64,000 nucleotides of DNA from Chitinophagaceae bacterium. Its GTDB lineage: Bacteria; Bacteroidota; Bacteroidia; Chitinophagales; Chitinophagaceae. Shown here one piece after another: positions 6,544 to 60,530 of the stretch. The number at the start of each line of letters is the position of its first letter. The stretch's first letter is position 1. The translations under genes were made by a program, and so were the position numbers. A model generated the notes under the pieces. That model worked only from the letters and a program-made list of their open reading frames with translations. It had not been told where the DNA came from and ran no database searches. The stretch is from positions 575,723 through 639,722 of the forward strand of contig OZ257130.1 in NCBI GenBank assembly GCA_965279015.1. Reading direction: 5' to 3'.

Positions 6544-6644
6544 GCTTGCCTTCGCGTAGCCGCTACGGCGAAGCGAGGCCGGTAAGACGGGAAGGTGGTA
6601 AGTTATTTTTCCAACTAATGAAAACGTCTTCCCGTCTTCCCGGC
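6544..6644. repeat. REP-like hairpin plus 8-mer (GGGAAGAC) inverted-repeat element
   Basis: cttcgcgtagccgctacggcgaag hairpin, then ccggtaagacgggaag ... gtcttcccgtcttcccgg; homologous to 17624-17789. Confidence 0.8.
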
Positions 6645-6674
6645 TATTGTCTTTATGCTTTTTTTCTATTTGTT

Positions 6675-7205
6675 TTAGGAGGCAATTGGGTTTTGTATTT
6701 TGTATTTGCTGATTACCTGGATATTTGTTTTATCCACTTCCGCCAACATTTGGTAACCTAATGATGGCAGGTACACTTTTACAGCGCGATTATTAATATG
6801 CAGCACATCTCCTTCCATGTTGGAAAGGGGTCCGCTGGTTACCCGGATACGATCGTGCAGGTTAACATCGGCTTTTTCCAGCTTAACATTTTCATGTTCG
6901 TTTAGGAAATCCTTGATTGCATCAATCTCATCATCCTTGATAACAGCGGGATTGCCTAACCAATAAACAAAATTTATTACGCCATCCGCTTGCTTGATCT
7001 CCTGGTATTCATCATTAGCCGCCCGAACAAATACATATGAATTAAACAACGGCTCCATCAAGGTTTTTTTCCGGTCGGACCACTGCCGCACTACTTTTGT
7101 TAGCGGGCAATATGCGTCAATCTTTTTTTGCATGAGCAAACCGGTTACCTTTTTCTCCCATTTTGGTCGGGTATAAACCGCATACCATTTTTTTGAATGT
7201 TCCAT
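6675..7205 (-). CDS. upxY: UpxY-family (NusG paralog) transcription antiterminator
   Basis: WYAVYTRPKWEKKV, PLFNSYVFV, C-terminal KOW (VTSGPL); EPS locus. Confidence 0.92.
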   Translation of the reverse strand: MEHSKKWYAVYTRPKWEKKVTGLLMQKKIDAYCPLTKVVRQWSDRKKTLMEPLFNSYVFVRAANDEYQEIKQADGVINFVYWLGNPAVIKDDEIDAIKDFLNEHENVKLEKADVNLHDRIRVTSGPLSNMEGDVLHINNRAVKVYLPSLGYQMLAEVDKTNIQVISKYKIQNPIAS

Positions 7206-7222
7206 AGTAGTATATTTTGAAG

Positions 7223-7264
7223 AGCTGCTAGCTGCTAGCCGTTAGCTATTAGCTGCTAGCTTCT
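7223..7264. repeat. Six tandem 7-mers (AGCTGCT consensus), single arm
   Basis: agctgct agctgct agccgtt agctatt agctgct agcttct; related to 23550-23664. Confidence 0.8.
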
Positions 7265-7319
7265 TCGGTTATAATAATTCTTCTGACTATTAATTATTTT
7301 TCTCTGGCCGATATCCCAT

Positions 7320-7372
7320 CCGCTATCGCTTCATTCTAAAAAAGGCTTCGCCCATAACAGCCACATCGGCGA
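7320..7372 (-). promoter_or_regulatory. Possible pause/attenuator leader of upxY with an ops-like motif
   Basis: Minus strand: short GC hairpins (tcgcc...ggcga, ggcgaagcc), a T6 run, then AGCGATAGCGG, which resembles RfaH ops GGCGGTAGCGT. Inference. Confidence 0.35.
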
Positions 7373-7417
7373 CTGAGCAATTGAAAATCATTCAATAAAA
7401 CTGTACAGAAATAATCG

Positions 7418-10586: not shown

Positions 10587-10796
10587 AAAATTTACATTTT
10601 ACGAACTTCTCATACAGGCAAATCAAATCGCTATATAAGATTCTTCAGAACATATCTGGATTGACTAATCAGTATAACCATGGCAAAAGCGATTTTATTC
10701 ATTTACTTAACAAGTATTTCATAGGTATAAACTCATACGTAAATTAATTTATAATATTGTCATCATGTTGTTCATTTCAGTTCTTTGGCACATTGT

Positions 10797-10815: not shown

Positions 10816-10828
10816 GTATGCGACAACG

Positions 10829-15488: not shown

Positions 15489-17525
15489 TTAGTACCTAAT
15501 AAGTTTCTCAATAGTTTCTTCTAACCGTGCTTTGGCCATAAATGCTTTTTCGAGTTCTATATTAAAAGGAATAGGTGTATCCATCGAGGCGCAACGCATT
15601 ACCGGCGCATCCAGTAATTCAAAACAATGCTCGCCGATCCAGGCAGCAATCTCTCCGCCAATACCACCGGTTAATGTGTCTTCATGTAACAACAATACTT
15701 TACCGCTTCTTGCTACCGCTGAGCGGATAGCCGCGTAATCCAATGGCAATAACGTTCGCAGATCAAGAATATCAATTGATATTTCGGGATGTTCATCCGC
15801 ATACTCTTCGGCCCAATGCACAGCAGCTCCATAAGTAATGATGGATAGTTCTTCTCCGTCCCGAACATGACGGGCTTTTCCGATTTCAATTTCATAATAC
15901 TCTTCGGGAACCGGACCCGTTATGCTTCTGTACAATGCCTTATGTTCAAAATATAAAACCGGGTTGGGGTCATTGATCGCCGCAATCAATAATCCTTTTG
16001 CATCAATTGGAGTAGAAGGGTATACCACTTTCAATCCGGGGGTATGTACAAACCAGGCTTCATTACTCTGGCTATGAAAAGGACCGGCCCCCACTCCACC
16101 ACCTGTTGGCATTCTTATAACGGTATCTGCGTTCTGTCCCCAGCGATAATGTATTTTAGCAAGATTGTTTACGATCTGGTTAAAACCCACGGTTACAAAA
16201 TCGGCGAACTGCATTTCCATCATACTCTTGTATCCCTCTAAACTCAATCCCAATGCAGCTCCCACTATAGCATTCTCGCAAAGTGGCGTATTGCGCACTC
16301 TTTCTTTCCCGAATTCATTTACAAATCCTTCTGTTATTTTAAAGGCGCCTCCGTATTCAGCAATATCCTGACCCATGAGTATTAGATTCGGATGCTGTTG
16401 CATGGATTGACGGAGGCCGTCGCTGATTGCATCGATGAGACGTTTGTCGTGAGTCGTGAATGGTGAGTCGTGAGAGGTCTCTGAGTTATCGAGAACTCTG
16501 ACTTCAAACTCCTGACTCCCGACTCCTGACTCCCGACTTACTGCCGACTCCGCATACACATCATTGAATTCTTCCTCTTCATCTGCAACAACCACCGGTA
16601 TATTAAATCCAATTGCCAGTTCGCTTTCAATCTTTTCCTTGAATTCCGCCCGGATATTTTCAATATCGGTATCGGTTAACAGTTTCTCGGATTTCAGGTA
16701 TTCTTCATATTTTTTTACCGGATCTTTTTGTTCCCATATCTCGAATAAATGTTTGGGAACATATTTGGTTCCGCTTGCTTCCTCATGTCCGCGCATACGG
16801 AAAGTCATGCATTCGATTAAATAGGGTTTTTGATGTTCGATACAATAATCACGAACCCCCTTTATAGTATCGTATACGGTAAGAATATTATTGCCATCGA
16901 TCTTGATTCCTTCTATTCCATAACCAATTGCTTTTTCTACGAGGCTATCGCAACGGTATTGTTCATTCACCGGTGTACTCAATCCATATCCGTTGTTCTC
17001 AATAATAAAAATAACAGGCAGATCCCATACAGCCGCCGTATTCAGCGCTTCATGAAAATCTCCTTCGCTGGTGCCCCCATCACCGGTAAATGCCAGGGAT
17101 ACTTTTTTTTCTTTACGAAGTTTATGTGCCAATGCTACTCCATCGGCAATAGCCAGTTGAGGACCGAGGTGAGAAATCATCCCGCAGATATGATGTTCCT
17201 TAGAACCAAAATGAAAACTTCGTTCACGCCCCTTGCTATAACCTTCGCGGGCGCCCTGCCATTGCATGAATAGCTTACTGAGCGGCATGCCCCTTGATGT
17301 AAATACACCGAGGTTACGATGAAGTGGCATGATCCATTCGTCCTGATCCGTTGCTAATGCAGCACCAACCGCAATGGCTTCCTGGCCAATACCACTGAAC
17401 CATTTACTGATCTTTCCTTGCCGTAGCAGCACCAGCATTTTCTCTTCAATCATCCGTGGCCAGAGCAGGTTCCTGTAAAAATTGATAAGCTGAGCGTCGG
17501 GCAGTTCTTTACGATGGAATTGCAT
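15489..17525 (-). CDS. 2-oxoacid (branched-chain-type) dehydrogenase E1, fused alpha/beta
   Basis: TPP motif GDGGTSEGDFHEALN, FRMRGHEE, transketolase-like C-terminal domains (TPLCENAIVG). Confidence 0.95.
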   Translation of the reverse strand: MQFHRKELPDAQLINFYRNLLWPRMIEEKMLVLLRQGKISKWFSGIGQEAIAVGAALATDQDEWIMPLHRNLGVFTSRGMPLSKLFMQWQGAREGYSKGRERSFHFGSKEHHICGMISHLGPQLAIADGVALAHKLRKEKKVSLAFTGDGGTSEGDFHEALNTAAVWDLPVIFIIENNGYGLSTPVNEQYRCDSLVEKAIGYGIEGIKIDGNNILTVYDTIKGVRDYCIEHQKPYLIECMTFRMRGHEEASGTKYVPKHLFEIWEQKDPVKKYEEYLKSEKLLTDTDIENIRAEFKEKIESELAIGFNIPVVVADEEEEFNDVYAESAVSRESGVGSQEFEVRVLDNSETSHDSPFTTHDKRLIDAISDGLRQSMQQHPNLILMGQDIAEYGGAFKITEGFVNEFGKERVRNTPLCENAIVGAALGLSLEGYKSMMEMQFADFVTVGFNQIVNNLAKIHYRWGQNADTVIRMPTGGGVGAGPFHSQSNEAWFVHTPGLKVVYPSTPIDAKGLLIAAINDPNPVLYFEHKALYRSITGPVPEEYYEIEIGKARHVRDGEELSIITYGAAVHWAEEYADEHPEISIDILDLRTLLPLDYAAIRSAVARSGKVLLLHEDTLTGGIGGEIAAWIGEHCFELLDAPVMRCASMDTPIPFNIELEKAFMAKARLEETIEKLIRY
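16446..16552. repeat. 7-mer (GAGTCGG/T) inverted-repeat element in-frame inside the E1 alpha-beta linker
   Basis: gtcgtga gtcgtga atggtga gtcgtga ... actcctg actcccg actcctg actcccg; translates as SRESGVGSQEFEVRVLDNSETSHDSPFTTHD. Confidence 0.8.
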
Positions 17526-17623: not shown

Positions 17624-17789
17624 GCTTGCCTTGCGCCACCGCTGAAGCTAAGGCGGCACGCGGTCGCGTAGCCGCTATGGTCGTTTGCGCCATAGCTTCA
17701 GCGACGGAGCGCGAAGCAAGGCCGGGAAGACGGAAAGACGTCTAAAAAATAATTCATTTCAATACTTCCCGTCTCCCCGACTTCCCGGC
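17624..17789. repeat. Composite REP-like element with two nested inverted insertions plus GGGAAGAC arms
   Basis: Colinear with 6544-6644 apart from inserts at about 17631-17663 and 17681-17711. Confidence 0.8.
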
Positions 17790-17817: not shown

Positions 17818-18171
17818 TCAATCTGTTTTTTCTTTTGCCGGCTCTTCTTTATATAATACTGCGGTAACAATGGAGAGCAGCAAACTAAAGAGCAGTGCCC
17901 ACCAGAAACCATCAACAGTAAATCCATCAATAAACTTATCAGCCAGCAGAATAATGGCCGCGTTAATGACAAAAAGAAATAGACCAAGTGTAATTACGGT
18001 AATAGGGAGAGTAAGTATTATTAAAATAGGTTTTAAAAGCGCATTCAATACCGCTAATACAACTGCGAGGATGATGGCTGTCCAGAATGAATCGATCTTA
18101 ATCCCTTTTAATATATAAGAAAGCCCGAACGCTATGACGGAGGTGACGATGATGCGCATTATGAATTTCAT
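17818..18171 (-). CDS. YvlD-like / phage holin superfamily IV membrane protein
   Basis: LNALLKPILIILTLPITVITLGLFLFVINA motif. Start moved to 18171 because the ORF-track extension reads through a repeat. Confidence 0.85.
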   Translation of the reverse strand: MKFIMRIIVTSVIAFGLSYILKGIKIDSFWTAIILAVVLAVLNALLKPILIILTLPITVITLGLFLFVINAAIILLADKFIDGFTVDGFWWALLFSLLLSIVTAVLYKEEPAKEKTD

Positions 18172-18335
18172 AGTTTGAAGTTTGTGGTTTTTAGTTTGTA
18201 GTTCTTCAGACATAACTTGCAAAATGAAATACTTCACCCTGCTGTTTTAAGTCCTTTTATTTTTTGTATACAAGCTTGTTTACTATTACTTAAAAATGAT
18301 AAACCTAAGGAACTACAAACCACAAACTACAAACC
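18171..18335. repeat. 7-mer (TACAAAC) inverted-repeat element
   Basis: tagtttgaagtttgtggtttttagtttgtagttctt ... aaggaactacaaaccacaaactacaaac. Confidence 0.85.
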
Positions 18336-18336
18336 A

Positions 18337-19653
18337 TTAAACTACTACAAGCTCATAAAACTCTTCCGGCTGCAAATATTTATTCGCTAATTGCTGCAAT
18401 TCTTCAGCGGTAATGGTTTTTGCTATTTCAATCCCTTTATAAAAATACGCTTCATCCAATCCATTCAGGAGTAAATTTTTCCATCTGCCGATTACCTGGA
18501 AGGGACCGTCCATATCACCCAGCACGGTTCCGATCATATAATTCCGGATCATCTGTAATTCTTCTTCGTCAACTGGCTCTTCACGCAACAATTGCATTTC
18601 TTTATATACTTCATTGATAGTGGCGTCGCTAACCTCTCTCCCCGCTTCGGTGCTGATCATCCATCCGCTTTCTCTTACCTGGTTCATTATATAACTATAA
18701 ATCCCATAGGTATATCCTTTGTCTTCCCGGATATTGTTTGATAGTCTCGAACCAAAAAATCCACCAAATACATTATTTAATACCAGCACTTTTTGAAAAT
18801 CAGGATGTAACCGGTTCGGAAAAGGACGCACAATACGGATAGCCGCTTGCACTCCATTGGGATCATTCGTGATTACATATTTTTTCTGCGCCGCAGGCTG
18901 TAAGGGATGAATGATTTCGTTTCCTGCACTGTGGTGGGAGTGAATGGGAAGTTTTCCAAAATGATTTTCCAATTGCTGTTCCAGATCCGCGGGAATTTTA
19001 CCAGCAGCGAAAATGATACAGCGACCACTTTTATAATACTGGTTGTAAAAAGAAACCAGTTCTTCCCTTCGCAGAGCAGCATAATCTTCCAGGTTATTAT
19101 AAGTGCCGTAGGGATGCTTTTCGCCGAATAAATATGAATCAATAAGACGACCCGCTACAAAATCATTTTTTTGCAGTCCTACTTTTAAACGTTGTTGTGA
19201 ATTCTGACTATAAATGGCCAGCTCTTCTTCAGGATAAACCGCATCAGTAATCATCTCTGCTACTACCGGTAATACTTCGTTTAAATGTTTATTGAGACAA
19301 TGCAGTGTTATCTCCGCAGTTTCGCTATGGCAGCTACGACTAAGATAGGAACCATAATATTCAAAATGTTCGTTGAGCTGGAAAGCGGTTTTTTGTGAAG
19401 TGCCATTCTTAAACAGGTAGTTCGTAGCGGAAGCCACCGCCTTTTTCTCTTCGAACCAATTGCCAGCACTAAACACCCAGTTCAGCATCAGGAGATCTTC
19501 TTCTCCCAAATTCACGAAATATACTTCCACCCCATTGGAAAGCGTAAATTTTTCACAGGGTGGTAATTTAATATCAAAATCAACCGGTTCTTTTATAGCC
19601 GGAGGTATAGCTCTGTTGATTTTACCAGCTTCACTGATCTTAGTTTTCACCAT
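18337..19653 (-). CDS. M16 (pitrilysin) family peptidase, non-catalytic subunit
   Basis: FGSRLSNNIREDKGYTYGI; no HxxEH. Start reassigned to 19653 (MVKTK), overlapping the upstream stop. Confidence 0.9.
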   Translation of the reverse strand: MVKTKISEAGKINRAIPPAIKEPVDFDIKLPPCEKFTLSNGVEVYFVNLGEEDLLMLNWVFSAGNWFEEKKAVASATNYLFKNGTSQKTAFQLNEHFEYYGSYLSRSCHSETAEITLHCLNKHLNEVLPVVAEMITDAVYPEEELAIYSQNSQQRLKVGLQKNDFVAGRLIDSYLFGEKHPYGTYNNLEDYAALRREELVSFYNQYYKSGRCIIFAAGKIPADLEQQLENHFGKLPIHSHHSAGNEIIHPLQPAAQKKYVITNDPNGVQAAIRIVRPFPNRLHPDFQKVLVLNNVFGGFFGSRLSNNIREDKGYTYGIYSYIMNQVRESGWMISTEAGREVSDATINEVYKEMQLLREEPVDEEELQMIRNYMIGTVLGDMDGPFQVIGRWKNLLLNGLDEAYFYKGIEIAKTITAEELQQLANKYLQPEEFYELVVV

Positions 19654-20910: not shown

Positions 20911-21059
20911 AGTTTGGGGTTTTGGTTTGTAGTTTATGGTTTATAGTTTGTAGTTCTTTTGGTGCTTTACCCAAAACTGATGTCACCCTACTTTCTAGGT
21001 AAAAAGGTGATTACTTGTTAAGATGAACTTAAGGAACTACAAACCACAAACTACAAACT
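20911..21059. repeat. 7-mer (TACAAAC) inverted-repeat element
   Basis: Right arm shares 29 identical bp (21030-21058) with 18306-18334. Confidence 0.85.
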
Positions 21060-23550: not shown

Positions 23551-23664
23551 AGAAGCTTCGAGCCTTTAGCCACGAGCTGCGAGCTGCTTCTGAAAACATA
23601 AACGATATTTCAATTTTTAACCGGACGTTGCTAGTAGCTCGAAGCTAGCGGCTCAAAGCTTCTT
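23550..23664. repeat. 7-mer (AGCT-type) inverted-repeat element
   Basis: aagaagcttcgagcc ... ggctcaaagcttctt terminal inverted repeats with gagctgc-type units. Confidence 0.8.
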
Positions 23665-25679: not shown

Positions 25680-28556
25680 ATGAAAATAATTTCTTTTTAT
25701 TCATACAAAGGAGGAGTTGGCCGGAGTCAGCTCTGCTCAAATATTGCCGCTTACCTGTTCTATCATAAAGGGAAAAAAGTGTTGCTATGGGATTGGGATT
25801 TTGAAGCGCCCGGTCAGCATTATTTTTTTGGACTTAAGAATAAGGATATTCAAAAAGCCGGGACACTCGAATTACTCGAAGAATATATGATTACCATGCG
25901 CAAAGGAGGGGAAATAAAACCTTCGGATCTTACTTATGTTACCGCAGAAAAAAATATTACCCCACTCCGATTTCCTGATAGTAGCAATACTGGTAAAACA
26001 GGTTGTATAGATTTACTGGCCGCCGGAGCATACGAAAATGATTTTGGGTACCGGGCAAATAACTTTGATTGGTTCGAGTTCTACAGCATGATGGATGGTG
26101 CCAATTACATAGAACATCTTAAAGAACAATTGGGGACCCTGGGATACGACTATATACTCATTGACAGCCGAACCGGTATCAGCGATTATTCCGGTATCTG
26201 TAATATTCAACTCCCTGCAATTAATGTTCTGGTTGTTGCGCCGACTCTTCAAAATTTTGAGGGCTGCAAATCCATCATAGAAAAAATTCAAAAGGCAGAA
26301 TACCATAAGATAAAAAAAACCAAACCGCGCATTTTGCCAATACTGTCCCGGTTGGACTATAGTAATCCTAATTACAATGAATGGGTGCTTCGATTTTCGG
26401 AATATTTTTCGGCCACTATGATAAACCTGGATGACGAGTTTGATCTTGAGTTCCTGCCGGAGATATTTTCAGATGTCTATTTTAAAGATACTTTTCTTCC
26501 CTATACTCAAGCGATTTCCGCCGGTGAAAATATCCTGTTCAGTTATCAACGAACCTATACCAGCACGGATCACACAAAACCTTTCCGGAATATCGCAGAA
26601 TATATTGAAAGTATAAACGTACAGGGTTATATCAGCTTCTATAAACGACTGGATGAAGATACCTGGGTCAATTACGCAGATATTGCGGAGGAGAAAAGCG
26701 AGCACAGAAAAGCCGCCATTGCATACACACAAATTGGAATCAAACAAAACGATACTGATAGAAAACTAGAATACTTTAATAAAGCCATTTCGATCGATAG
26801 CGGTTATCCCCAACCATATTACTATGGCGGCAATAGCTATTATGTAAAGGGAAACAAGGAAAAGGCAATTGAGTTTCTCCAAAAATATGTAGACATAGTT
26901 CCCGATTATTATCTCCCCTGGTTTAACCTGGGATTGATCTGCTATGAATCAGGATTAAAGGAAAAAGCCATCGAATGCTACAATATAGCGATCGAATTAA
27001 AACCTGATTATCACCTGGCCTGGAATAACCGCGGATTGATCTATTATGAAGACGGACAAAAAGAAAAAGCCATCGAATGCTATAATAAAGCGATCGAATT
27101 TAAACCCGAATTCCCCCAGCCCTGGTACAATCTGGGATTGATCTATAATGAAGAGGGTCCAAAAGACAAAGCCATCGAGTGCTATAATAAAGCGATCGAA
27201 TTTAAACCTGATTATTACCTGGCATTGAATAACCTGGGATTGATTTATAATGATATGGGAGAATATGAAAAAGCCATGACTTATTATAACAAAGCCATCG
27301 AATCTAAACCCGATTATCACCCGGCATTGAATAACCTGGGATTGATTTATGAACGACTAGGACAAAAAGAAAAAGCGATCGAAGCATTCAATAAAGCTAT
27401 CGAGTTAAAACCCGACTATCACCTGGGATGGAATAACCTTGGATTGATTTATGACCAGTTAGATCAAAAGGAAAAAGCCATCGAGTGTTATAAAAAATCA
27501 ATCGAGTTAAAAAACGATTACCCCCTCAGCTGGTATAACCTGGGATTAATGTATGAAAAGACAGAACAAATAGATAAAGCTATAGAATGCTATAGTAAGT
27601 CGACTGAGTTAAACCCCAATTACTCACTCAGCTGGTATGGCCTGGGTTTAATGTATGAAAGGAAAGAAAAAATAGATAAGGCTATTGAATGCTATAGTAA
27701 GGCAACCGAGTTAAAACCCGAATATCCGCTAAGTTGGAATAACCTGGGATTACTCTATGAAAGGACAGAACAAAAAGAGAAAGCTATTGAATGCTATATC
27801 AAGGGGACCGAGTTAAAGCCCGACAATCACCTTCCATGGCACGACCTGGGAAGAATATATAATAGTATGTCTCAAACCGAACAAGCCATCTATTATTACG
27901 ACAAATCCATCGAAATTAAACCTGATTACTATCTTTCATGGAACAATTTGGGGGTGATCTATTATCGGCTGGGACAACAGGAAAAGGCTATTGATTGTTA
28001 CAAAAAAGCGATCGAGTTGAAATCAGATTATTTTAATTCATGGTTTAACCTCGGTTTGATTTATAATGATATGGGAGATACAAAAAAAGCAATCGAAGTC
28101 TATAACAAAGCCAGTGAACTAAATCCAACAGATTATGGTGTGTGGGTGCAACTGGCGGATATTTACAATAATTTGAAACAAACAGAAAAAGCAGAAGAGT
28201 TCTATAAGAAAAGCATCGCTTTAAATCCAACCTCGTCCGAAGTTTATAATACTTACGGATTTATGCTGTTCAAGTTGGGAAAGGCAGATCTAGCAGAAGA
28301 CTATTTTCAAAAAGCGGTGGAGTTGGGATCTAATACACATGGGAGTATGAACCTTGCCAATATCCGTTTTATCAAAGGCAACTGGCAGAAAGCAGTTGAA
28401 CTCTATAAAAAAAGTCTCGATCACTTTAAAGAAAAAGATCAATTCTGGACAGGAATCGATGGCGATTTTCAATACCTGCAACAGTATAATATTTCAAAAC
28501 AGGATTTTGAAAAAATGAAATTCGAAATTTCCCAAACTACTGTTCCGGTAAGTTGA
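25680..28556 (+). CDS. KGGVGR-variant ParA/MinD-type ATPase fused to about 16-17 TPR repeats
   Basis: FYSYKGGVGRS, WDWDFEAPG, DYILIDSRTG; 34-aa repeats W.NLGLIY...G..EKAIECY.KAIELKPDY. Confidence 0.9.
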   Translation: MKIISFYSYKGGVGRSQLCSNIAAYLFYHKGKKVLLWDWDFEAPGQHYFFGLKNKDIQKAGTLELLEEYMITMRKGGEIKPSDLTYVTAEKNITPLRFPDSSNTGKTGCIDLLAAGAYENDFGYRANNFDWFEFYSMMDGANYIEHLKEQLGTLGYDYILIDSRTGISDYSGICNIQLPAINVLVVAPTLQNFEGCKSIIEKIQKAEYHKIKKTKPRILPILSRLDYSNPNYNEWVLRFSEYFSATMINLDDEFDLEFLPEIFSDVYFKDTFLPYTQAISAGENILFSYQRTYTSTDHTKPFRNIAEYIESINVQGYISFYKRLDEDTWVNYADIAEEKSEHRKAAIAYTQIGIKQNDTDRKLEYFNKAISIDSGYPQPYYYGGNSYYVKGNKEKAIEFLQKYVDIVPDYYLPWFNLGLICYESGLKEKAIECYNIAIELKPDYHLAWNNRGLIYYEDGQKEKAIECYNKAIEFKPEFPQPWYNLGLIYNEEGPKDKAIECYNKAIEFKPDYYLALNNLGLIYNDMGEYEKAMTYYNKAIESKPDYHPALNNLGLIYERLGQKEKAIEAFNKAIELKPDYHLGWNNLGLIYDQLDQKEKAIECYKKSIELKNDYPLSWYNLGLMYEKTEQIDKAIECYSKSTELNPNYSLSWYGLGLMYERKEKIDKAIECYSKATELKPEYPLSWNNLGLLYERTEQKEKAIECYIKGTELKPDNHLPWHDLGRIYNSMSQTEQAIYYYDKSIEIKPDYYLSWNNLGVIYYRLGQQEKAIDCYKKAIELKSDYFNSWFNLGLIYNDMGDTKKAIEVYNKASELNPTDYGVWVQLADIYNNLKQTEKAEEFYKKSIALNPTSSEVYNTYGFMLFKLGKADLAEDYFQKAVELGSNTHGSMNLANIRFIKGNWQKAVELYKKSLDHFKEKDQFWTGIDGDFQYLQQYNISKQDFEKMKFEISQTTVPVS
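26800..28430 (+). repeat. Coding 102-bp tandem repeats (TPR array)
   Basis: ga(a/c)aaagccatcga(a/g)tgcta at 26961, 27063 and 27165 (period 102). Confidence 0.9.
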
Positions 28557-31398: not shown

Positions 31399-34300
31399 AT
31401 GAACACACCTTTCAGAAAAATACTGCGGATAGCGATTCTTGTAGTGGCTGGAGCCTTACTTTTTAATTTTTTCGGTTATTACCTGGTCTATCGCAAATCG
31501 CACGAAAACGAAAAGTTGGTTCGCTTTTCAGACATAACCGCTAAGCAACGAATGCTAAGCCAGGTAATGACGAAAGACGCGTTGATTTTGATTGATGCGG
31601 AATTACCCGAGACGGCTGATACCACATTAAGGAGTGCTCTTAAAACCGATCTGGCTTCATTTATCAGCAATAACGAACTACTGCAAAAAGAAATTAGCCT
31701 GCCCAATATACCAGTAAGCCAGAATACGCTCGAGATTAAACGCCTGTTCAACAATTCACAAACACACTTTAAAAGTATTGTAGCAGTTGCCACAGAAGTT
31801 TTGCAGGCCGATAGCCTGATGATTGAAATGAATTCCACCCTTTACAAGAGAGAATTGTTTCAAAGCGAAAATAAATTCAGCCCATTAATGGCTGAAATAA
31901 TAGAGCGTTACTCAAAAGTTATCGAAGGAAAGAACGAAGACGCTGCCGCGATTAATACCAGTAAATTTATTTCTTTAGTGATCGCCTTACTCTGCCTGGT
32001 ACTTCTTGTAATTGAACCCCTTTTCCGGAGCGGACGAAAAAATTATGAAGCATTACTCAACAATGAATTAAAATTCCGACTTCTTGCGGAACACTCGGAA
32101 GATATAATTACAGTAAACAGCATCGATGGCACCTTGCAATATGTTTCCCCCTCTGTTCAACGGGTTTTAGGATATTCCCAACAGGAAGTAGAAGGAAAGA
32201 ATATTTATGATTACGTACACATTGATGACCTGTATAAGTTTTCTCCAACCGGTGAAAGTCAAACCCTGAATGAAATAGTAAACCTTACGATCCGCTACCG
32301 GATGCGTTGCAAGAATGAAGACTATATCTGGTTAGAGACCATTATCAAACCCGTGAAAGAAGAAAATGTGGTGGTGAAACTCATCTGCACCAGTCGAAAT
32401 ATTACCGAACGCAGGAACGCGGAAAGTGAACGGGAACAATTACTTTCTGAAGCGAAGCAATCGGAAGAATTATTACGAAGCGTTATCAACTCTACACCCG
32501 ACTGGATATTTATCAAAGACCTGAGTCATCGGTATCTTCTCGTTAACCAATCTTTTGCTGATGCCATGCACCAGCCTCCTACCTATTTTGTTGGCAAAAA
32601 CGATATTGAAGCGGGCTTTCCTATAGCATTAGTAAAGGGAGATCCTGAAAAAGGGATTCGTGGATATTGGGATGATGATCTGGATGTGGTGAAAACAGGC
32701 AAATCAAGATTTTCGGAAGAAGAGGCGAATATAATAGATGGAAAAACCCAATACTTCAGCACGGTAAAAGTGCCCTTGCGTGATAGTGATGGGTATATCT
32801 GGGGAGTATTGGGGTTTGCGCATAATATAACAGATCGCAAAATGGTGGAGGAACACCTGCAACGCAAGGATTTGTTATTACAGGCTGTAACAGAAGCTAC
32901 ACACCGATTAATCAGCAACAATAGTCTCGTAGACGCTATGGGGGAGGCTATCCAGTTACTGGGGATTAAGATGCAGGTTGATATCGTGAATATTTATAAA
33001 AATGAAAGAACAAACGATGACAAATGGGTAACCAATGAATTGCTTCGCTGGGAAAATGGGATGGATGAGTTGATTCACAAAAATCCCGCGAGACAAAACC
33101 TTCTGATGAATTTGCAGAGTTCGTTATTCCGGACCTTACAAAATGAAGATACTTATTTCAACCTGGTAAAAAATATGGACGAGGATGGCATCAAATCATC
33201 TTTGTTGAACCAGGGTGTTAAATCAATAGCTGTTATCCCTATTTTCAGCTTGCATAATTTCTGGGGGTTTGTGGAATTCAGCGATTGCAAAATCGAGCGT
33301 GAATGGACCATCACTGAATTTTCTATCCTGCAATCTTTTTCTTCCACGCTTGCAGCAGCTATCGAACGGATGCAGATGGAACATGAATTGGTACAGGCAA
33401 AGAATATCGCTGAAACGGCCAGCCAGGCAAAAAGCGAATTCATGGCCAATATGAGTCATGAGTTGCGTACACCAATGAATGGTATTATTGGCTTTACGGA
33501 CCTTGTTCTCACCACAGAATTACAGCACTCCCAACGACAGTATCTGGATAATGTAAAAAAATCAGCCTTTAACCTTTTAAGCATTATCAACGATATTCTC
33601 GATCTTTCGAAAATTGAAGCAGGCAAACTGATTATCGATAATACACATTTCCGACTGGATGAATTGGTCGAAGATACTGTTGACCTGCTCACCGTAAAAG
33701 CATTTGAAAAAAAGCTACAGGTAATTTGCCGTACCGATCCAAGAATACCTTCTTTATTTAACGGCGATCCGGTTCGTGTACGACAGGTATTGGTAAACCT
33801 TTTAGGCAATGCAATTAAGTTTACTGCCGAGGGTGAGATTATAGTTACTACCCGAAGGTTAACAGATGTGTATCATAAAGAGGGTAAAAACTTTTGCGAT
33901 ATTGAATTGTCTGTAAGAGACACCGGTATCGGTATTTCCCGGGAGAAACTAAAAAAAGTGTTTGAGAGTTTTACGCAGGCCGATTCTTCCACTACCCGCA
34001 AATACGGAGGAACAGGTTTGGGTTTAACCATTTCGAAAAACCTGGCAGAATTGATGGGTGGTCAACTTACTGTTACCAGCGATATTGGACAAGGCAGTAC
34101 ATTTATTCTGCAATTGGCAATGGAGGTCGTTAATGAAAAGCCTCAGTTGCTGAGCGATCCGATTAACAACGTTAAAAAAGTATTGATCGCCGATGCAAAT
34201 GCCAGTAACCGACAGTGGTTAAAAGAAATAATTAATTATTTCGGAATAGAATGCGAGTTGGTTGGTAGCGCGCTGGAAGCCATGATACTGCTCGATAAAC

Positions 34301-34980
34301 TGAATCAAACAAATCAATTACCCGGACTTGTAATCTGCGACCAGCATATGCCGGAAATAGACGGTATTCAATTTATTAAAGAATTACGCAATCATTCTGT
34401 TTTTTCCCGCATTCCGGTAAGTCTTATGTTATCCTCCCTGGAAAAAAACCTTTACCAGAACGAAGCAGAAAAACTTCGCGTAAATCATATACTTACCAGG
34501 CCGGTTAAGCTTTATGAGTTATATAGCTTTCTATGCTCTCTTTCTTCGGGAGAAGAAATGCAGGCGGAAGAAAAACAGGGCTCTACTGTTATTGAAAAAT
34601 TCGCGGACGCTACTACCATTATGGTGGTGGAAGACGATCCCATTAACATGATGCTGATTTCGGAGGTACTTCGTAAAATGGGCTTTAAAGTAATTAAAGC
34701 CACTAATGGCAAACAGGCTCTTGAAATATTACCAAAATACGACCCGGTGTTGATTTTTATGGACGTAAATATGCCTGAAATGGATGGTTTTACAACCACC
34801 CGTCTTATCCGACAGTTACCTGAGCCACATTGTTCACTTCCGATAATTGCCCTTACTGCCGACGCTATGCAGGGCGACCGGGAAAAATGTATTGAAGCCG
34901 GCATGAATGATTATGTTACCAAGCCTTTCCGAATTGAAGAGATTGAGGCGGTGTTGAAGAATAGAACGCTTTTAGTATAA
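31399..34980 (+). CDS. Hybrid sensor histidine kinase (PilJ/NarX-like sensor, 2 PAS-PAC, GAF, HisKA, HATPase, 2 REC)
   Basis: QRMLSQ sensor motif, FMANMSHELRTPMNG, DTGIG, GGTGLGL, two receiver domains. Confidence 0.93.
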   Translation: MNTPFRKILRIAILVVAGALLFNFFGYYLVYRKSHENEKLVRFSDITAKQRMLSQVMTKDALILIDAELPETADTTLRSALKTDLASFISNNELLQKEISLPNIPVSQNTLEIKRLFNNSQTHFKSIVAVATEVLQADSLMIEMNSTLYKRELFQSENKFSPLMAEIIERYSKVIEGKNEDAAAINTSKFISLVIALLCLVLLVIEPLFRSGRKNYEALLNNELKFRLLAEHSEDIITVNSIDGTLQYVSPSVQRVLGYSQQEVEGKNIYDYVHIDDLYKFSPTGESQTLNEIVNLTIRYRMRCKNEDYIWLETIIKPVKEENVVVKLICTSRNITERRNAESEREQLLSEAKQSEELLRSVINSTPDWIFIKDLSHRYLLVNQSFADAMHQPPTYFVGKNDIEAGFPIALVKGDPEKGIRGYWDDDLDVVKTGKSRFSEEEANIIDGKTQYFSTVKVPLRDSDGYIWGVLGFAHNITDRKMVEEHLQRKDLLLQAVTEATHRLISNNSLVDAMGEAIQLLGIKMQVDIVNIYKNERTNDDKWVTNELLRWENGMDELIHKNPARQNLLMNLQSSLFRTLQNEDTYFNLVKNMDEDGIKSSLLNQGVKSIAVIPIFSLHNFWGFVEFSDCKIEREWTITEFSILQSFSSTLAAAIERMQMEHELVQAKNIAETASQAKSEFMANMSHELRTPMNGIIGFTDLVLTTELQHSQRQYLDNVKKSAFNLLSIINDILDLSKIEAGKLIIDNTHFRLDELVEDTVDLLTVKAFEKKLQVICRTDPRIPSLFNGDPVRVRQVLVNLLGNAIKFTAEGEIIVTTRRLTDVYHKEGKNFCDIELSVRDTGIGISREKLKKVFESFTQADSSTTRKYGGTGLGLTISKNLAELMGGQLTVTSDIGQGSTFILQLAMEVVNEKPQLLSDPINNVKKVLIADANASNRQWLKEIINYFGIECELVGSALEAMILLDKLNQTNQLPGLVICDQHMPEIDGIQFIKELRNHSVFSRIPVSLMLSSLEKNLYQNEAEKLRVNHILTRPVKLYELYSFLCSLSSGEEMQAEEKQGSTVIEKFADATTIMVVEDDPINMMLISEVLRKMGFKVIKATNGKQALEILPKYDPVLIFMDVNMPEMDGFTTTRLIRQLPEPHCSLPIIALTADAMQGDREKCIEAGMNDYVTKPFRIEEIEAVLKNRTLLV

Positions 34981-35068
34981 TGTAAAATATAAAATGTAGA
35001 ATATAAAATGTAAAAGTGAAGGCAACTCTACTTTTACATTTTATATTTTAAATTCTACATTTTACATT
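34979..35068. repeat. 7-mer (AAAATGT) inverted-repeat element
   Basis: aatgtaaaatataaaatgtagaatataaaatgtaaaagt ... acttttacattttatattttaaattctacattttacatt. Confidence 0.85.
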
Positions 35069-35145
35069 TCCCAGTCTTAACATCTCCTTACAACCCCCTT
35101 CTTTAATTTCACGTCTTATTTCCGAACTAAATCGACATAAATAAG

Positions 35146-35460: not shown

Positions 35461-35678
35461 AACCAAGATGCCAAGAAACAAAGAAATAAAACCAAAAATC
35501 AAGAATCAAAGAAAGAATACAAAGAGAGAAAAAATTAAACCCAAAAAAGAATAAAATCAAAACGGGTCTCCGATAATTCGGAGACCCGTTTGTATTTTTT
35601 TGTATTCTTTCTTTGGTACTTGGTTTTCTTTTGCATTTTTTCTTTGGATCTTGGTTCTTCGGTTCTTGGTTCTTTGTA
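35461..35678. repeat. Long imperfect hairpin of CCAAGAA/CAAAGAA 7-mers around a terminator
   Basis: A-rich left arm mirrored by a T-rich right arm (tcttggt/tctttgg units). Confidence 0.7.
35560..35591. terminator. Bidirectional intrinsic terminator
   Basis: aaacgggtctccga-taat-tcggagacccgttt, 14-bp stem between convergent genes. Confidence 0.85.
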
Positions 35679-48426: not shown

Positions 48427-48529
48427 GTTTGGAGTTTGTAGTTCTTGAGTGTAACAGTTTGACTTAATTAAACCTGCATTAAATTGGGGATTTAGGGTTG
48501 AGACAACCCCAAACCCCAAACTACAAACT
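48427..48529. repeat. 7-mer (TACAAAC/CCCAAAC) inverted-repeat element
   Basis: gtttggagtttgtagtt ... aaccccaaaccccaaactacaaact. Confidence 0.75.
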
Positions 48530-48532
48530 TTA

Positions 48533-49474: not shown

Positions 49475-49571
49475 AAATGTAAAATCTAAAATGTAAAAGG
49501 GCATCTCATGCGGAGAAGCCCTTTTACATTTTATACCTGCCTGCCGACAGGCAGGTTCAATATTTTACATT
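49475..49571. repeat. 7-mer (AAAATGT) inverted-repeat element with a nested palindrome
   Basis: aaatgtaaaatctaaaatgtaaaagggc ... gcccttttacattttat[acctgcctgccgacaggcaggt]tcaatattttacatt. Confidence 0.8.
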
Positions 49572-49572
49572 C

Positions 49573-52582: not shown

Positions 52583-52690
52583 AGGTTTAAAGGTTTAAGG
52601 GTTTAATAGTTTAAGAGTTCTACCATTCACAGATGCATTCCGGATTGGGATAACCTTTAAACTATTAAACCCTTAAAACGTTAAACTTTT
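52583..52690. repeat. 108-bp 8-mer (AGGTTTAA) inverted-repeat element, copy 1
   Basis: Five 8-mers, 28-nt loop, five inverted 8-mers. Confidence 0.85.
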
Positions 52691-52705: not shown

Positions 52706-53941
52706 CTACTCATTTACCCGATAATCATAGGGCATCATATCAGCTATTCCCTCCCATGCCCAATATCCATGCAGTATTATATCCTTCGCTTCATAAAAGA
52801 AGCCAGTTGGTTTTATGAAAATGGATTTGCCGTCTATAAGTTGCAGAGAAGATGATTGAAAAGGTTTCCGTTTGTTCTGTCCCTTAATTCTTGCATATGC
52901 CGCTTCTTCTGCTTCCTTGCGGTAAACCACCCGCAATCGATCCGCGAAACTCAATTGGCCTGTACTATCCGTAATTTTTGTTATTAATGAATAAGAATAC
53001 GACTGTATAGAATCCACCTGTTCAAAAAAATCCGATTGTTGAATAATCTTATTATAATAAGTCATTGAATCCTTCTTCCTGGGATTTCCGAAAACAAAGG
53101 TTTGATTACTCCGTGGATCGGAAAATACCCGCAATCCAAGTGAATCTTCCATTACTCTTCTCACCCGGTTTTTCTCCACATTAACCTTCCACCTTTCCTC
53201 ATATATTTCAAAACCATCTTGAACAAGTTGATCATGGTAGAGTGCAAACATAAAATGATTCAACGATCCCTGATAAGTTTCTTTGCGGTTCACTTTCCAT
53301 TCACTTCTCCGCTTATTCCCTTTCAACATCTTATCTGAAAAAAAACAAAACCCTTTAAAGAATACGGCTTTAGTTTCAAAATCATAAACAAACTCTTCCA
53401 GATCGAATTGAATCGAATAACCAAGCGCCTCGTTCTCTAATTGCAACGGCACCGTTGAAATAACCTGCAACCTGTTTCCTTTATCTGTTCTTCTGAATTG
53501 AAGTGCCTCGTGGTTTTTCAATTTCGATTTTCGAGCATTCCCGGACCTGCCTATAAAATTATTCCTGAAAAGCTCTCCCCAGCGAATCCAACCATCCTTT
53601 TCAAATGGTTCAACAACTACTGCAGTTAGTTCAACCGCTTTAGGCTTTAGCCAGATTATTAAAAAGGGAATTGATTCGTCTGTGTTGATGAGTATCCGCT
53701 GCGTTTCATATCCAACGCAGGAGAAAATCAGCTCATGTTTACCGGCTGGTACATTACTCAACGTGAATTCACCGTTCTTCCCGGATAGGGTCCCAATGGA
53801 AGTCTGATTCAGGTATATACTTACCCGGATGAGTGTGTCACCGGCTATTTCACTTTTAACCTCTCCCTTAATAGTAAATAGGGATTGGGAGAGTCCAATT
53901 TTTGATAGTATGAGAAACAGGATGAATGAAACGGTTCTCAT
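52706..53941 (-). CDS. Carboxypeptidase-like regulatory domain protein
   Basis: Signal peptide; IGTLSGKNGEFTL, FSCVGYE, NEALGYSI, AWEGIADMMPYDY. Confidence 0.8.
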   Translation of the reverse strand: MRTVSFILFLILSKIGLSQSLFTIKGEVKSEIAGDTLIRVSIYLNQTSIGTLSGKNGEFTLSNVPAGKHELIFSCVGYETQRILINTDESIPFLIIWLKPKAVELTAVVVEPFEKDGWIRWGELFRNNFIGRSGNARKSKLKNHEALQFRRTDKGNRLQVISTVPLQLENEALGYSIQFDLEEFVYDFETKAVFFKGFCFFSDKMLKGNKRRSEWKVNRKETYQGSLNHFMFALYHDQLVQDGFEIYEERWKVNVEKNRVRRVMEDSLGLRVFSDPRSNQTFVFGNPRKKDSMTYYNKIIQQSDFFEQVDSIQSYSYSLITKITDSTGQLSFADRLRVVYRKEAEEAAYARIKGQNKRKPFQSSSLQLIDGKSIFIKPTGFFYEAKDIILHGYWAWEGIADMMPYDYRVNE

Positions 53942-53954
53942 GTGTTATAACAGA

Positions 53955-54062
53955 CGGTTTTAGAGTTTAAGGGTTAAAAGGTTTAAAGGTTTTTCCATTC
54001 ATGAGTTCATCACGGATTGAGGCAACCCTTAAACTCTTAAACCCTTAAACCTTTAAACTTTC
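53955..54062. repeat. 108-bp 8-mer inverted-repeat element, copy 2
   Basis: Same layout as 52583-52690; loops 19/28 identical. Confidence 0.85.
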
Positions 54063-57827: not shown

Positions 57828-57951
57828 TCTTTTTTCGATTTACGGTTAGCAGTCAACCATCCCACAGTATCAGCCATTTCTGTTCGGTTGCTCCCTGCCA
57901 GGTCTTTCAAGGCCAATTGACAAAAGTAAAGGAAAATTGGCGAGTAAAAGC

Positions 57952-58072
57952 AATTGGGGATTGGGAAATTGGGAAATTTCGAAATCGCTTAACCAGTCTG
58001 TCAAACTGCCTTTTTTCTTAGTCACTATACCTCAAGAGATTTCCCAATTTCCCAATCCAAAATTTCAAAATC
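57952..58072. repeat. 8-mer (ATTGGGAA) inverted-repeat element
   Basis: attgggaa attgggaa atttcgaa ... ttcccaat ttcccaat, between divergent genes. Confidence 0.8.
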
Positions 58073-58125
58073 TGTAAGTTTTGTAAAATCTTCCTAACAA
58101 ATCTTGGTACACCGTTTGGCAGCTA

Positions 58126-58133
58126 TACCTTTG
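58126..58133 (+). promoter_or_regulatory. -7 element TACCTTTG
   Basis: Matches TAnnTTTG, 25 nt before the M28 gene ATG. Confidence 0.55.
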
Positions 58134-58158
58134 CCACTTTACTTATAATCTAACCTGT

Positions 58159-59814
58159 ATGCTGTTGCGTTTTCTTTTTTCCCTATTCATATTATTGCCC
58201 GCTCTCCATATTGCTGCTCAAAAACTCAAAAAAGCGGATAAGCTAATAGTTACCAACCTGCAATCGCATGTTCGCTTTCTGGCTGATGATAAGTTGGAGG
58301 GGCGTCGTGCGGGAACCGCCGGGGAAAAGTTGGCGAGTGAATATATAGGAAGCCAGTTTCAGGGAATCGGTCTGCTGCCAAAAGGTACCAATAAATGGCT
58401 CCAGCCCTTTGAAATTAATGATGGCAAGCAGGTGAACTCCGCCACTCATTTTTTTATAAATGGCGCTGATCTTAGGTTGAATACTGAATTCTTTCCTCTT
58501 GTTATCAGTCCTAATAAAAGTACAGAAGCCGCTGTTTCTATAGCTTTGCCAGAGCGGGGAGTTCCCTGGTTCCTCGACCTGAAAGAATTAATGGAAGAAA
58601 ACAAAGACAACCCTCATTTTGATTTGGGTGAAGCTATCAAAACCAAGGCAAACAATATATCCGGCAAAGGAGCAACCGCGTTGATTATTTATAATACTTC
58701 CACAACACCCGATAATCTTGCTTTTAACGGAAAAGATCGCAGTGAACAAGCTACCATTCCCATATTGTATGTTACTGCCGATGCAAAGAAAAGATACCTT
58801 AGCGATCCGCAGGCAACCTTGGATATCAAACTTAAAATCGATATCGGCGATAAAAAAAGAACAGGCAATAATATTGTGGGTTATATTGATAACGGTGCGG
58901 CAACCACCGTTGTATTAGGTGCACATTACGATCATCTTGGTTATGGAGAAGATGGAAATTCGATGTTGCGGGGTACCACCGACAAGCTAATACATAATGG
59001 CGCCGATGACAATGCAAGTGGTACTTCCGCGCTGATTGAATTGGCGCGACTACTTAAAGCGAATAAAGGCAAACAAAATAATTATTTGTTTATCGCATTT
59101 TCCGGCGAAGAACTGGGTCTTACCGGATCCAAGTATTTTACGGAGAACCCAACCATTGATCTCAGCACAGTAAGTTATATGATCAATATGGATATGGTAG
59201 GAAGATTGAATGACAGCAGTAAGGCGTTAACTGTTGGAGGTTATGGAACATCACCCACTTGGGGAAGGTTGATTGTATCGGGAAAGGGAAAGAAAAGTTA
59301 TTTTACCATTAAGCTGGATTCAAGTGGAACAGGTCCGAGTGATCATGCCTCATTTTACCGGAAAGATATTCCTGTTTTGTTTTTCTTTACTGGCTTACAT
59401 ACAGACTATCACAAACCCTCCGATGATTTTGACAAGATCAATTATGCAGGGGAACTGCAAATCATAAAGTATGTTGCTGATATCATTGGAAAAACCAAGG
59501 AGCAAGGAAAGCTTGTATTTACGAAAACCCGCGAAACACAAACCAGTACTACTTCCCGGTTCAGCGTAAGCATGGGTATAATGCCGGATTATACATTTTC
59601 CGGAACTGGTGTGAGAGTTGATGGAGTAACAGATGGAAGACCCGCGCAAAAAGCCGGATTAAAAACCGGAGATGTAATTATTCAACTGGGCGATTTCAAT
59701 ACCTCTTCTGTTGAAACGTATATGCAAGTGCTGGGGAAATTTAAGAAAGGAGATAAGGCAAAGGTGAAGTATAAGAGAGGGGCGGAGGTTGTGGAGACAG
59801 AAGTTGTATTCTAA
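58159..59814 (+). CDS. M28 family peptidase with PA-like and PDZ domains
   Basis: LGAHYDHLG, GADDNASG, FSGEELG, SDHASF; C-terminal PDZ. Confidence 0.93.
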   Translation: MLLRFLFSLFILLPALHIAAQKLKKADKLIVTNLQSHVRFLADDKLEGRRAGTAGEKLASEYIGSQFQGIGLLPKGTNKWLQPFEINDGKQVNSATHFFINGADLRLNTEFFPLVISPNKSTEAAVSIALPERGVPWFLDLKELMEENKDNPHFDLGEAIKTKANNISGKGATALIIYNTSTTPDNLAFNGKDRSEQATIPILYVTADAKKRYLSDPQATLDIKLKIDIGDKKRTGNNIVGYIDNGAATTVVLGAHYDHLGYGEDGNSMLRGTTDKLIHNGADDNASGTSALIELARLLKANKGKQNNYLFIAFSGEELGLTGSKYFTENPTIDLSTVSYMINMDMVGRLNDSSKALTVGGYGTSPTWGRLIVSGKGKKSYFTIKLDSSGTGPSDHASFYRKDIPVLFFFTGLHTDYHKPSDDFDKINYAGELQIIKYVADIIGKTKEQGKLVFTKTRETQTSTTSRFSVSMGIMPDYTFSGTGVRVDGVTDGRPAQKAGLKTGDVIIQLGDFNTSSVETYMQVLGKFKKGDKAKVKYKRGAEVVETEVVF

Positions 59815-59816
59815 GG

Positions 59817-59954
59817 AATGTGAAAATGTGCAGATTAGAAAATGTGCAAATGCCTCAAGCGTACCATTCCTTATAAATCAGAATTTTACTTTTAGTCAAG
59901 AAAATTAAGTAAGAAGAATTTGCACATCTGCACATTTTCAAATTTGCTAATTTG
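59817..59954. repeat. ~137-bp inverted-repeat element (GAAAATGT/GCAGATTA 8-mers), copy 1
   Basis: 30-bp and 28-bp blocks identical to copy 2. Confidence 0.9.
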
Positions 59955-59959
59955 CCACC

Positions 59960-60394
59960 GTGAAACTCAAACTCGACTTCGAAGACCTCGCCGAAGATTT
60001 TTTTGAAGAAACCCACCTGCTGGGTATTGTAGCCCCTATCCGCGATTACCAATTTTGCTGGTTCCTCAACCATCGGTTTCGTTTCGACTTTCGCATTAAC
60101 AATGATATTGAAATACAGCTTTTCAAAAAAAAGCGTCATTATTATTTCCGGATCTATGAGTATCGTCAACCCAATAGCAGCCTCATACACTATTTATACA
60201 AAAACCAGTTTGATGGCGAATACCTGCTGCCCGAATTTAAACACCTCGATTATCTTTGGTTATTGAAAGGAGATACCATAAGTACCGATTTTTTACTCGA
60301 TCTTACTACTACCATTAAATCAATGAATGGGGTACAATTGGTGATGGAGTTGACGAATGAGAAGATAAAGAATAAGGGACATCTGATATTTTAA
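59960..60394 (+). CDS. IPExxxVDY family protein
   Basis: LLPEFKHLDYL motif; GTG start. Confidence 0.85.
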   Translation: MKLKLDFEDLAEDFFEETHLLGIVAPIRDYQFCWFLNHRFRFDFRINNDIEIQLFKKKRHYYFRIYEYRQPNSSLIHYLYKNQFDGEYLLPEFKHLDYLWLLKGDTISTDFLLDLTTTIKSMNGVQLVMELTNEKIKNKGHLIF

Positions 60395-60530
60395 ATATGC
60401 AAATGTGCAGATTAGAAAATGTGCAAATGCGTCAGGTGTAACATTCCTTATAAATTAGAGTTTTTCTATTAGTCAGGAATTTTAAACGAGAAGAATTTGC
60501 ACATCTGCACATTTTCTAATTTTCTAATTT
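60395..60530. repeat. ~137-bp inverted-repeat element, copy 2
   Basis: Direct repeat of 59817-59954, including the loop (cattccttataaat, tagtca). Confidence 0.9.

Follow-up and report, generated by a model that had tools for sequence, protein, structure and literature searches.

The intervening sequence (IVS) in helix 45 of the 23S rRNA of Coxiella burnetii comprises a 28-bp terminal stem with an open reading frame (ORF) for the S23p protein in its loop; it contains tandem GACAGAT heptamers, the number of which varies between strains, and is excised by RNase III, which cuts at the first repeat (PMC4990558). The corresponding protein family, PF05635 (23S rRNA IVS protein), is related to Avd, a protein of diversity-generating retroelements (PMC10053308). 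Heptamers are also known as intergenic TAACTGA repeats in Beggiatoaceae, Cyanobacteria, and a few Bacteroidetes (PMC4679880). Here, we consider hairpins assembled from inverted tandem arrays of 7- or 8-nt units in a 64,000-nt stretch of DNA (contig OZ257130.1 of assembly GCA_965279015.1, positions 575,723 to 639,722; hereafter, the window) from a soil Chitinophagaceae bacterium with a 5.53-Mb genome, whose relatives include Longitalea, Niastella, Puia, and Flavitalea. These elements are likely gene-less, non-autonomous members, resembling miniature inverted-repeat transposable elements (MITEs), of a class of IVS-type stem-loop cassettes bearing a TIGR02436/PF05635 gene. Each lineage of the class has its own 7- or 8-nt unit, repeated four to five times per inverted arm.

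IVSs, the heptamers of the Coxiella IVS, and the intergenic heptamer arrays of cyanobacteria, Beggiatoaceae, and a few Bacteroidetes are already known. A literature search found no paper on dispersed hairpins of inverted 7/8-mer arrays or on their tie to TIGR02436.

Gene-less hairpins and their gene-bearing counterparts

The initial annotation of the window described the hairpins as a pervasive pattern, and a genome-wide scan for periodicity and inverted repeats bore this out, arrays and hairpins being found throughout the genome. Tandem Repeats Finder (TRF) returned 1,831 rows of period 7 and 835 of period 8, compared with 14 rows of period 5 and 129 of period 6. Merging yielded 2,489 arrays of 7/8-nt units at a TRF score of at least 30, about 300 of which may be due to chance at this threshold. 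Adjacent array pairs with reverse-complement units make up at least 557 strict hairpins (409 of period 7 and 148 of period 8). The roughly nine unit types annotated in the window were recovered there, but the whole genome features 84 canonical units. Under a looser test, about 735 hairpins were counted, and 1,469 arrays had an inverted partner within 320 nt. A 1.5-Mb portion of the real sequence contained 677 arrays and 154 hairpins versus 80 and 0, respectively, in 1.5 Mb of Markov-random sequence of the same first-order composition.

The hairpin elements occupy 1.25% of the genome. The median arm comprises 4.4 units (32 nt), 68% of arms having four or five; the median loop is 50 nt, and the interquartile range of the element size is 99–140 nt. 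The family sizes are 92 for AAAATGT, 67 for ACGACTC, 41 for AAATGTGC, 31 for AAACTAC, 25 for AAATTGGG, and 24 for AACCAAG. Within a unit family, the arms (~30–40 nt) display the unit variants in a common order, e.g., AAATGTGC-AAATTAGA-AAATGTGC-AGATGTGC, mirrored in the opposite arm. As to the loops, 372 of 504 match no other loop; some families retain a typical loop length (~40 nt in the ACGACTC family) or a weak consensus, and AACCAAG-family loops harbor a central GC stem between A/T runs. Within an element, the two arms complement each other no better than they complement the arms of other copies, so no co-evolution of the two arms was detected; hence, the complementarity comes from descent from a symmetrical founder and not from local co-evolution. 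Single-linkage superfamilies and the assignment of units to cassettes at up to one mismatch were discarded, since this criterion is too permissive for 7-mers.

The initial annotation mentioned similar arms around four-helix-bundle (TIGR02436) genes of Bacteroidota. Indeed, all 11 genes of this type in the genome lie inside inverted 7/8-mer arms; each of the 11 arm pairs has a different unit, and 10 of them pass the alignment threshold. As noted at the outset, no TIGR02436 gene resides in the window, where the loops of the elements (10–110 nt) hold no PF05635/TIGR02436 ORF. The sole gene of the full-length form encodes a four-helix-bundle protein of ~120 aa matching the S23p pentamer of Xanthomonas (PDB 2GSC, E = 5.5e-21). 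No recurrent cargo other than TIGR02436 was found inside such arms in this genome.

Gene-less copies have their arms in common with a resident gene-bearing copy. In the six largest families, each exact unit is the unit of exactly one gene-bearing copy; under random placement, the chance of one gene-bearing copy per large family is 0.0018 (exactly one) or 0.014 (at least one). Moreover, in 357 of the 557 hairpins, the unit is exactly a variant present in an arm of a resident gene-bearing cassette, these variants spanning 34 of ~1,172 possible 7-mer classes (~3%). The gene-less hairpins thus fit the non-autonomous derivatives supposed at the outset, since all TIGR02436 genes of the genome sit within arms. 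Gene-bearing copies of the following units are located at these genome coordinates:

4900864, AAAATGT family (the largest)
1686037, ACGACTC family
3168244, AAACTAC family
4332856, AACCAAG family
730439, AAATGTGC family
3125198, ATTGGGAA unit, that of the site B hairpin of the window (see below)

All 24 AACCAAG-family copies have sub-terminal repeats in common with the gene-bearing copy at 4332856. Since the match is limited to arms and sub-terminal repeats, an origin by internal deletion is clear only for this family, and the idea that loops are remnants of the gene-bearing interior was rejected. Seven of the nine unit types of the window have a resident gene-bearing copy, GGGAAGAC and AGGTTTAA being the exceptions; a TIGR02436 cassette with GGGAAGAC-type (AAGACGGG-type) arms is present in another genus (L161).

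The initial annotation also mentioned arms around GxxExxY (TIGR04256) genes. Some of these genes do have inverted arms, but of another kind, with a period of ~12 nt (GGAACGCTAATAA) or in the form of CCACAGATTACAC-type hairpins, pointing to a parallel type of cassette at some GxxExxY genes. The genome contains six of them:

827937, 2342421, 5451514, 1580010, 384817, and 4438152 (genome coordinates), GxxExxY (TIGR04256) genes

Beyond this genome, TIGR02436 genes were detected in 47 of 61 sampled Chitinophagaceae genera. Inverted flanks (E <= 0.003) were present at 51 of 80 TIGR02436 loci from other genera, with a period of 7 or 8 in 47. Among random small genes of the hairpin-rich genome studied here, taken as a control, 5 of 150 had inverted flanks, 2 of them with period 7/8. 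The arm units differ widely among genera. Mean protein identity declines with unit distance from 0 to 5 (55, 47, 36, 31, 29, and 26%; Spearman −0.25, with none of 2,000 permutations as low), showing that the gene and the arms evolve as one heritable unit.

The cassettes are in sense orientation between co-directional genes: the upstream neighbor shares the strand of the cassette gene in 10 of 11 cases in this genome and in 56 of 64 in other genera (p = 6e-10), which fits a promoterless cassette expressed by read-through. Array density was compared with gene presence in 17 sampled genomes, with 20–100 kb each for all but the present one: six genomes without TIGR02436 displayed 3.5–10 arrays per 100 kb (background) and no hairpins, ten genomes with the gene had 10–55 arrays and 0–6 hairpins per 100 kb, and this genome, with 45 arrays and 10.1 hairpins per 100 kb, is among the highest.

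The same association might arise in reverse, if the hairpins were primary, independent elements moved by a host function and the four-helix-bundle genes were passengers landing preferentially in their loops, as IVS ORFs do in the loops of rRNA helices. The absence of a catalytic domain from the protein agrees with such an arrangement, as does the high variability of the loops, which would therefore tolerate foreign DNA; small GC palindromes are indeed found inserted in arms and loops, and some hairpin families are devoid of a gene-bearing copy. Still, the passenger scenario is rather unlikely, because protein identity tracks the arm unit across genera, random landing would seldom leave one gene-bearing copy in each large family (p = 0.0018–0.014), and the six genomes without the gene show background arrays only.

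Elements of the window and their turnover

The ~16 elements annotated initially are present, with 7- or 8-nt TRF arrays at every coordinate listed for them. Folding predicts long hairpins for the window element sequences, and 11 of the 13 folded elements beat all 200 dinucleotide shuffles (z −3.6 to −10.4). An Rfam scan of the window matched no known RNA family. The elements, none of which is assigned to a strand, are as follows (window coordinates; z and shuffle counts refer to folding):

6578..6644, GGGAAGAC-type octamer hairpin; TRF; z −5.81, 0/200 shuffles
7223..7261, AGCTGCT array of 5.6 copies, a self-complementary, loop-less quasi-palindrome; TRF; z −0.88
16446..16549, GTCGTGA / ACTCCYG heptamer hairpin of the ACGACTC family; TRF; z −3.66
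17721..17789, GGGAAGAC-type octamer hairpin beside a REP-like palindrome; TRF; z −5.52
18171..18362, TACAAAC (AAACTAC family) hairpin with a ~107-nt loop; TRF; fold
20911..21059, TACAAAC-family hairpin; TRF; z −2.80, 3/200 shuffles as good
23573..23640, weak AGCTGCG hairpin directly 3' of the mqnC stop codon, a marginal member; TRF, 2.1 copies; fold
34975..35069, AAAATGT hairpin; TRF; z −8.47
35461..35676, CCAAGAA (AACCAAG family) long hairpin; fold
48427..48532, TACAAAC/CCCCAAA hairpin; TRF; z −4.80
49475..49572, AAAATGT hairpin with a GC palindrome (49535–49556) nested in its right arm; TRF; z −10.41
52583..52690, AGGTTTAA octamer hairpin, left bracket of gene 52706–53941; TRF; z −7.68
53955..54062, AGGTTTAA octamer hairpin, right bracket, adjoining the SNF2 stop codon; TRF; z −5.03
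57952..58062, ATTGGGAA octamer hairpin between the divergent SNF2 and M28 genes (site B); z −5.06
59817..59955, AAATGTGC-family octamer hairpin filling the M28–IPExxxVDY spacer (site C); z −3.61
60393..60530, AAATGTGC-family octamer hairpin 3' of the IPExxxVDY gene (site D); z −4.33

Two descriptions need correction. The element at 7223, taken for a lone arm, is a self-complementary AGCT-based array that folds no better than its shuffles. The element placed at 23550 does have an array and a fold, but it is weak, its partner being degenerate.

The region around the SNF2 gene was compared with nine syntenic congeners and with three metagenome relatives (L200, L201, and L202), the flanking genes of which are 82–94% identical to the window in nucleotide sequence. 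Three spacers of this region were occupied as follows:

Site B, SNF2 start to M28 start: AATTGGGA type (ATTGGGAA hairpin) in the window; the same element in L202; GATTTTG in L200; GGGAAGGC in L201
Site C, M28 stop to next gene: 145 nt, AAATGTGC type, in the window; 21–35 nt in five congeners; the same element in L202; GTGAGTC in L200 and L201
Site D, IPExxxVDY stop to next gene: 142 nt, AAATGTGC type, in the window; 8–23 nt in five congeners; TGACGAA in G002; AAATTTGA in G012; ATTTGTG in L200; loop-less TAGCTAA in L201

Hence, the elements are not fixed at orthologous sites: there are empty sites, there are replacements (five different unit families at site D across the window and its relatives), and, as set out above, there is an associated ORF class. 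Copies were gained, lost, and replaced in intergenic spacers over a short evolutionary scale. A further case is provided by the congener G001, which is devoid of gene 52706–53941 and of both AGGTTTAA hairpins and has 95 nt between the receptor gene and SNF2; in SNF2 orthologues, the site of hairpin 53955–54062 is occupied by other units or by nothing. Where the same element persists, its arms are conserved above the neighboring coding DNA and its loop drifts: between the site C copies of the window and L202, the arms are 95–97%, the loop 71%, and the flanking genes 82% identical. The site B copies of the same pair differ in unit number.

Several observations accompany these comparisons. In L201, the M28 peptidase gene ends on a stop codon contributed by the first unit of the hairpin arm inserted at site C (4159–4170). 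The gene 52706–53941 codes for a protein with a CarboxypepD_reg domain, for which the genus offers no orthologue, identity reaching 36% at most. The loop-less quasi-palindrome at 7223–7261, resembling the site D array of L201, lies 18 nt upstream of the start of a gene for a UpxY-family transcription antiterminator (6675–7205, minus strand).

Small palindromes are another recurrent companion. GC-rich, REP-like (repetitive extragenic palindromic) sequences (GCTTGCCTTCGCGTAGCCGCTACGGCGAAGCGAGGC) at 6545–6577 and 17625–17720 adjoin both GGGAAGAC hairpins, and the latter one holds two mirrored inserts, which indicates that small palindromes nest in or beside hairpin elements. Small GC palindromes (ACCTGCCTGCCGACAGGCAGGT, CCCCCGCGGGGG, and CCCTGCAGGG) are also inserted in hairpin arms, genome-wide in AACCAAG-family copies, and look like a second, even smaller invading repeat. 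The long hairpin 35461–35676 has its central GC stem-loop at 35560–35592, between A and T runs.

Two elements of the window extend into coding sequence. The left arm of the AAAATGT hairpin 34975–35069 includes the stop codon of ORF 31399–34980. The hairpin 16446–16549 is in frame within ORF 15489–17525 (minus strand), in the linker of a fused pyruvate dehydrogenase E1 alpha-beta; this insert may have joined two neighboring genes into the fusion. Unconnected with the hairpins, a tandem array with a 102-nt period (26924–27851, 9 copies by TRF) occurs in ORF 25680–28556, each unit probably corresponding to three TPR repeats.

Position of the hairpins relative to genes

With gene positions taken from crude ORF-based calls, the median distance from a hairpin to the adjacent stop codon is 4 nt (interquartile range 0–14), in line with the annotation that most elements adjoin a stop or start codon. 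Such proximity mainly reflects the shortness of the native spacers, 8–35 nt in congeners. Of the convergent spacers, 22% contain a hairpin, as do 11.5% of the co-directional and 7.9% of the divergent ones. Hairpins are also found inside ribosomal-protein operons, flanking rpsM and rplP, and are therefore not simple operon-end terminators. With stems of ~30 bp, often AT-rich, and a median loop of 50 nt, they do not resemble intrinsic terminators, and a consensus terminator scan fails to flag them; a minority of elements hold a short GC terminator-like stem within the loop. The bracketing of genes by same-family pairs was rejected as a general design, the excess being weak (20 cases vs. 12.1 expected, up to 24 occurring in 1,000 shuffles) and the bracketed genes ordinary.

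These figures bear on the suggestion that the hairpins are immobile terminators or mRNA stabilizers built by the host and grown in place by replication slippage and inverted duplication. Their start at a median of 4 nt past stop codons and their enrichment in convergent spacers are what one would expect of terminators, some loops do combine a GC stem with flanking A/T runs, and the difference in unit copy number between orthologous copies indicates slippage. Nevertheless, such an origin is very unlikely, considering that 40–90 dispersed copies exhibit an identical order of unit variants in ~35-nt arms, that unrelated families fill the same spacer in close relatives, that hairpins sit within ribosomal-protein operons, next to rpsM and rplP, and in divergent spacers, that no local co-evolution of arms is seen, and that a simple terminator scan misses them. 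In-place growth by slippage was rejected on the first two of these grounds.

Less probable still is that the hairpins are REP/REPIN-type elements moved by Y1 transposases (RAYT-like, i.e., similar to REP-associated tyrosine transposases) acting on single-stranded DNA hairpins: the genome has three PF01797 genes, the hairpin form is common to both, and the ACGACTC family, alone among the families, has a weak leading-strand bias (49/77, p = 0.02), but the Y1 genes have GTAG-type REP hairpins of their own on their flanks and no 7/8-mer arrays nearby, a conserved GTAG or CGTC head is missing from the heptamer hairpins, and three transposases hardly account for dozens of unrelated arm sequences. 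The Y1_Tnp (RAYT-like) genes at genome positions 1413990–1414334 and 5157831–5158175, with their GTAG-type REP hairpins (CCCGTAGGGAC and CCCCGTAGGGGCTACC) and an array of ~66-nt tandem repeats, are a separate REP system of this genome.

Proposed mechanism and comparison with known systems

If the hairpins are gene-less relatives of TIGR02436 cassettes, their spread could be envisaged as follows. The pentameric ring protein would recognize about five tandem units of its own lineage and may help host enzymes to copy or insert the element, with gene-less copies presumably using the protein in trans. The full-length cassette, probably lacking a promoter of its own, would be expressed by read-through. 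By analogy with the Coxiella IVS, the ~30-bp stem might be cut by RNase III in the transcript, which would make insertion between cistrons tolerable. The initial annotation had proposed a single structure-recognizing mechanism, or templated synthesis, behind the constant architecture. However, many protein/repeat lineages diverging together account better for an architecture that stays constant while the sequence varies. No evidence for templated synthesis was found; the genome has a single reverse transcriptase gene, which is not next to any cassette.

A number of points weigh against regarding the hairpins as cassette derivatives. No catalytic activity is known for the four-helix-bundle protein, and the cassettes of this genome come without a transposase, a recombinase, or a neighboring reverse transcriptase. 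Target-site duplication was not detected, although the element ends are fuzzy: abutting direct repeats are at the chance level, and none is visible in comparisons of filled and empty sites. Most loops contain no recognizable gene-bearing interior, and the GGGAAGAC and AGGTTTAA families of the window lack a gene-bearing copy in this genome. The co-divergence of protein and unit could reflect co-inheritance alone and not recognition, and the link between gene presence and array density comes from the 17 sampled genomes described above. The stability of sense and antisense folds is equal (179 vs. 162, p = 0.41), and loop orientation is random relative to transcription (32 vs. 24); on these grounds, selection at the RNA level was rejected.

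A wider generalization is possible, although doubtful: S23p/Avd-like pentamers may read about five tandem 7–8-nt units in a sequence-specific manner, and the protein together with the inverted arrays may represent a widespread class of mobile stem-loops without a transposase or reverse transcriptase of its own, relying on host replication, repair, or RNase III. Such a class would account for the 23S IVSs, the heptamers of cyanobacteria and sulfur bacteria, and the gene-less hairpins described here.

Three puzzles kept apart for more than 30 years, i.e., the nature of 23S IVSs, the role of the S23p protein, and the abundance of tandem heptamers, are tied together by this genome. As a test case, it combines hundreds of gene-less copies and eleven pairs of protein and repeat with congeners in which sites are empty and close relatives in which elements have been swapped. 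Should the protein prove to read its own repeats, the elements would be a mobile class for which no recombinase is known, and nature would have provided a set of orthogonal recognition pairs of protein and nucleic acid. Besides, since ~30-bp hairpins stand between many genes, including those for ribosomal proteins, and some supply stop codons, they likely shape operon expression and trouble gene annotation and assembly.

Among the known systems, REP/REPIN-RAYT are similar in their abundant intergenic hairpins acting as non-autonomous partners of a single-copy gene; the heptamer hairpins differ in having internally repetitive arms, with neither a GTAG or CGTC head nor a Y1 association. Eukaryotic Foldback elements likewise possess arms of tandem short repeats around a variable middle. 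In MITEs, as here, short non-coding copies have the terminal inverted repeats of a longer coding copy, but the coding copy of the present system is without a transposase, no target-site duplication is detected, and the loops are largely unrelated among copies. The short tandemly repeated repetitive (STRR) heptamers or long simple-sequence repeats of cyanobacteria and the TAACTGA repeats are likewise intergenic tandem heptamers with many units and a patchy spread including Bacteroidetes. The elements described here qualify as STRRs in this sense, a designation of a pattern rather than a mechanism. The published reports, in contrast, deal with direct repeats as possible regulatory sites; inverted pairs are essentially absent from them, apart from one set in BOGUAY, and the repeats are not connected with four-helix-bundle genes.

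The IVSs come closest. Short ORF-less 23S IVSs of Salmonella, Yersinia, and Campylobacter are reportedly stem-loops of ~90–150 nt, as described by Burgin et al. in 1990 and in later work. They are said to be present or absent between close relatives, as are the elements considered here, which also have no ORF, but to be confined to helix 25 or 45 of the 23S rRNA; they are not known to be built from tandem 7/8-mers. The ORF-bearing 23S IVSs (Coxiella, but also Leptospira and Brucella) share with the present cassettes the stem of tandem heptamers, the S23p/PF05635 ORF in the loop, and the location inside a host transcript. The difference is that the elements of this genome, whose 23S rRNA gene (genome 1869611–1872496; 2,886 nt) is of normal length with no IVS, lie between or within protein genes and not in helix 25 or 45, that most copies have lost the ORF, and that there are hundreds of copies in dozens of unit families. 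Given the same anatomy of the Coxiella IVS, the window elements are best read as gene-less IVS-type derivatives residing in mRNA spacers instead of rRNA.

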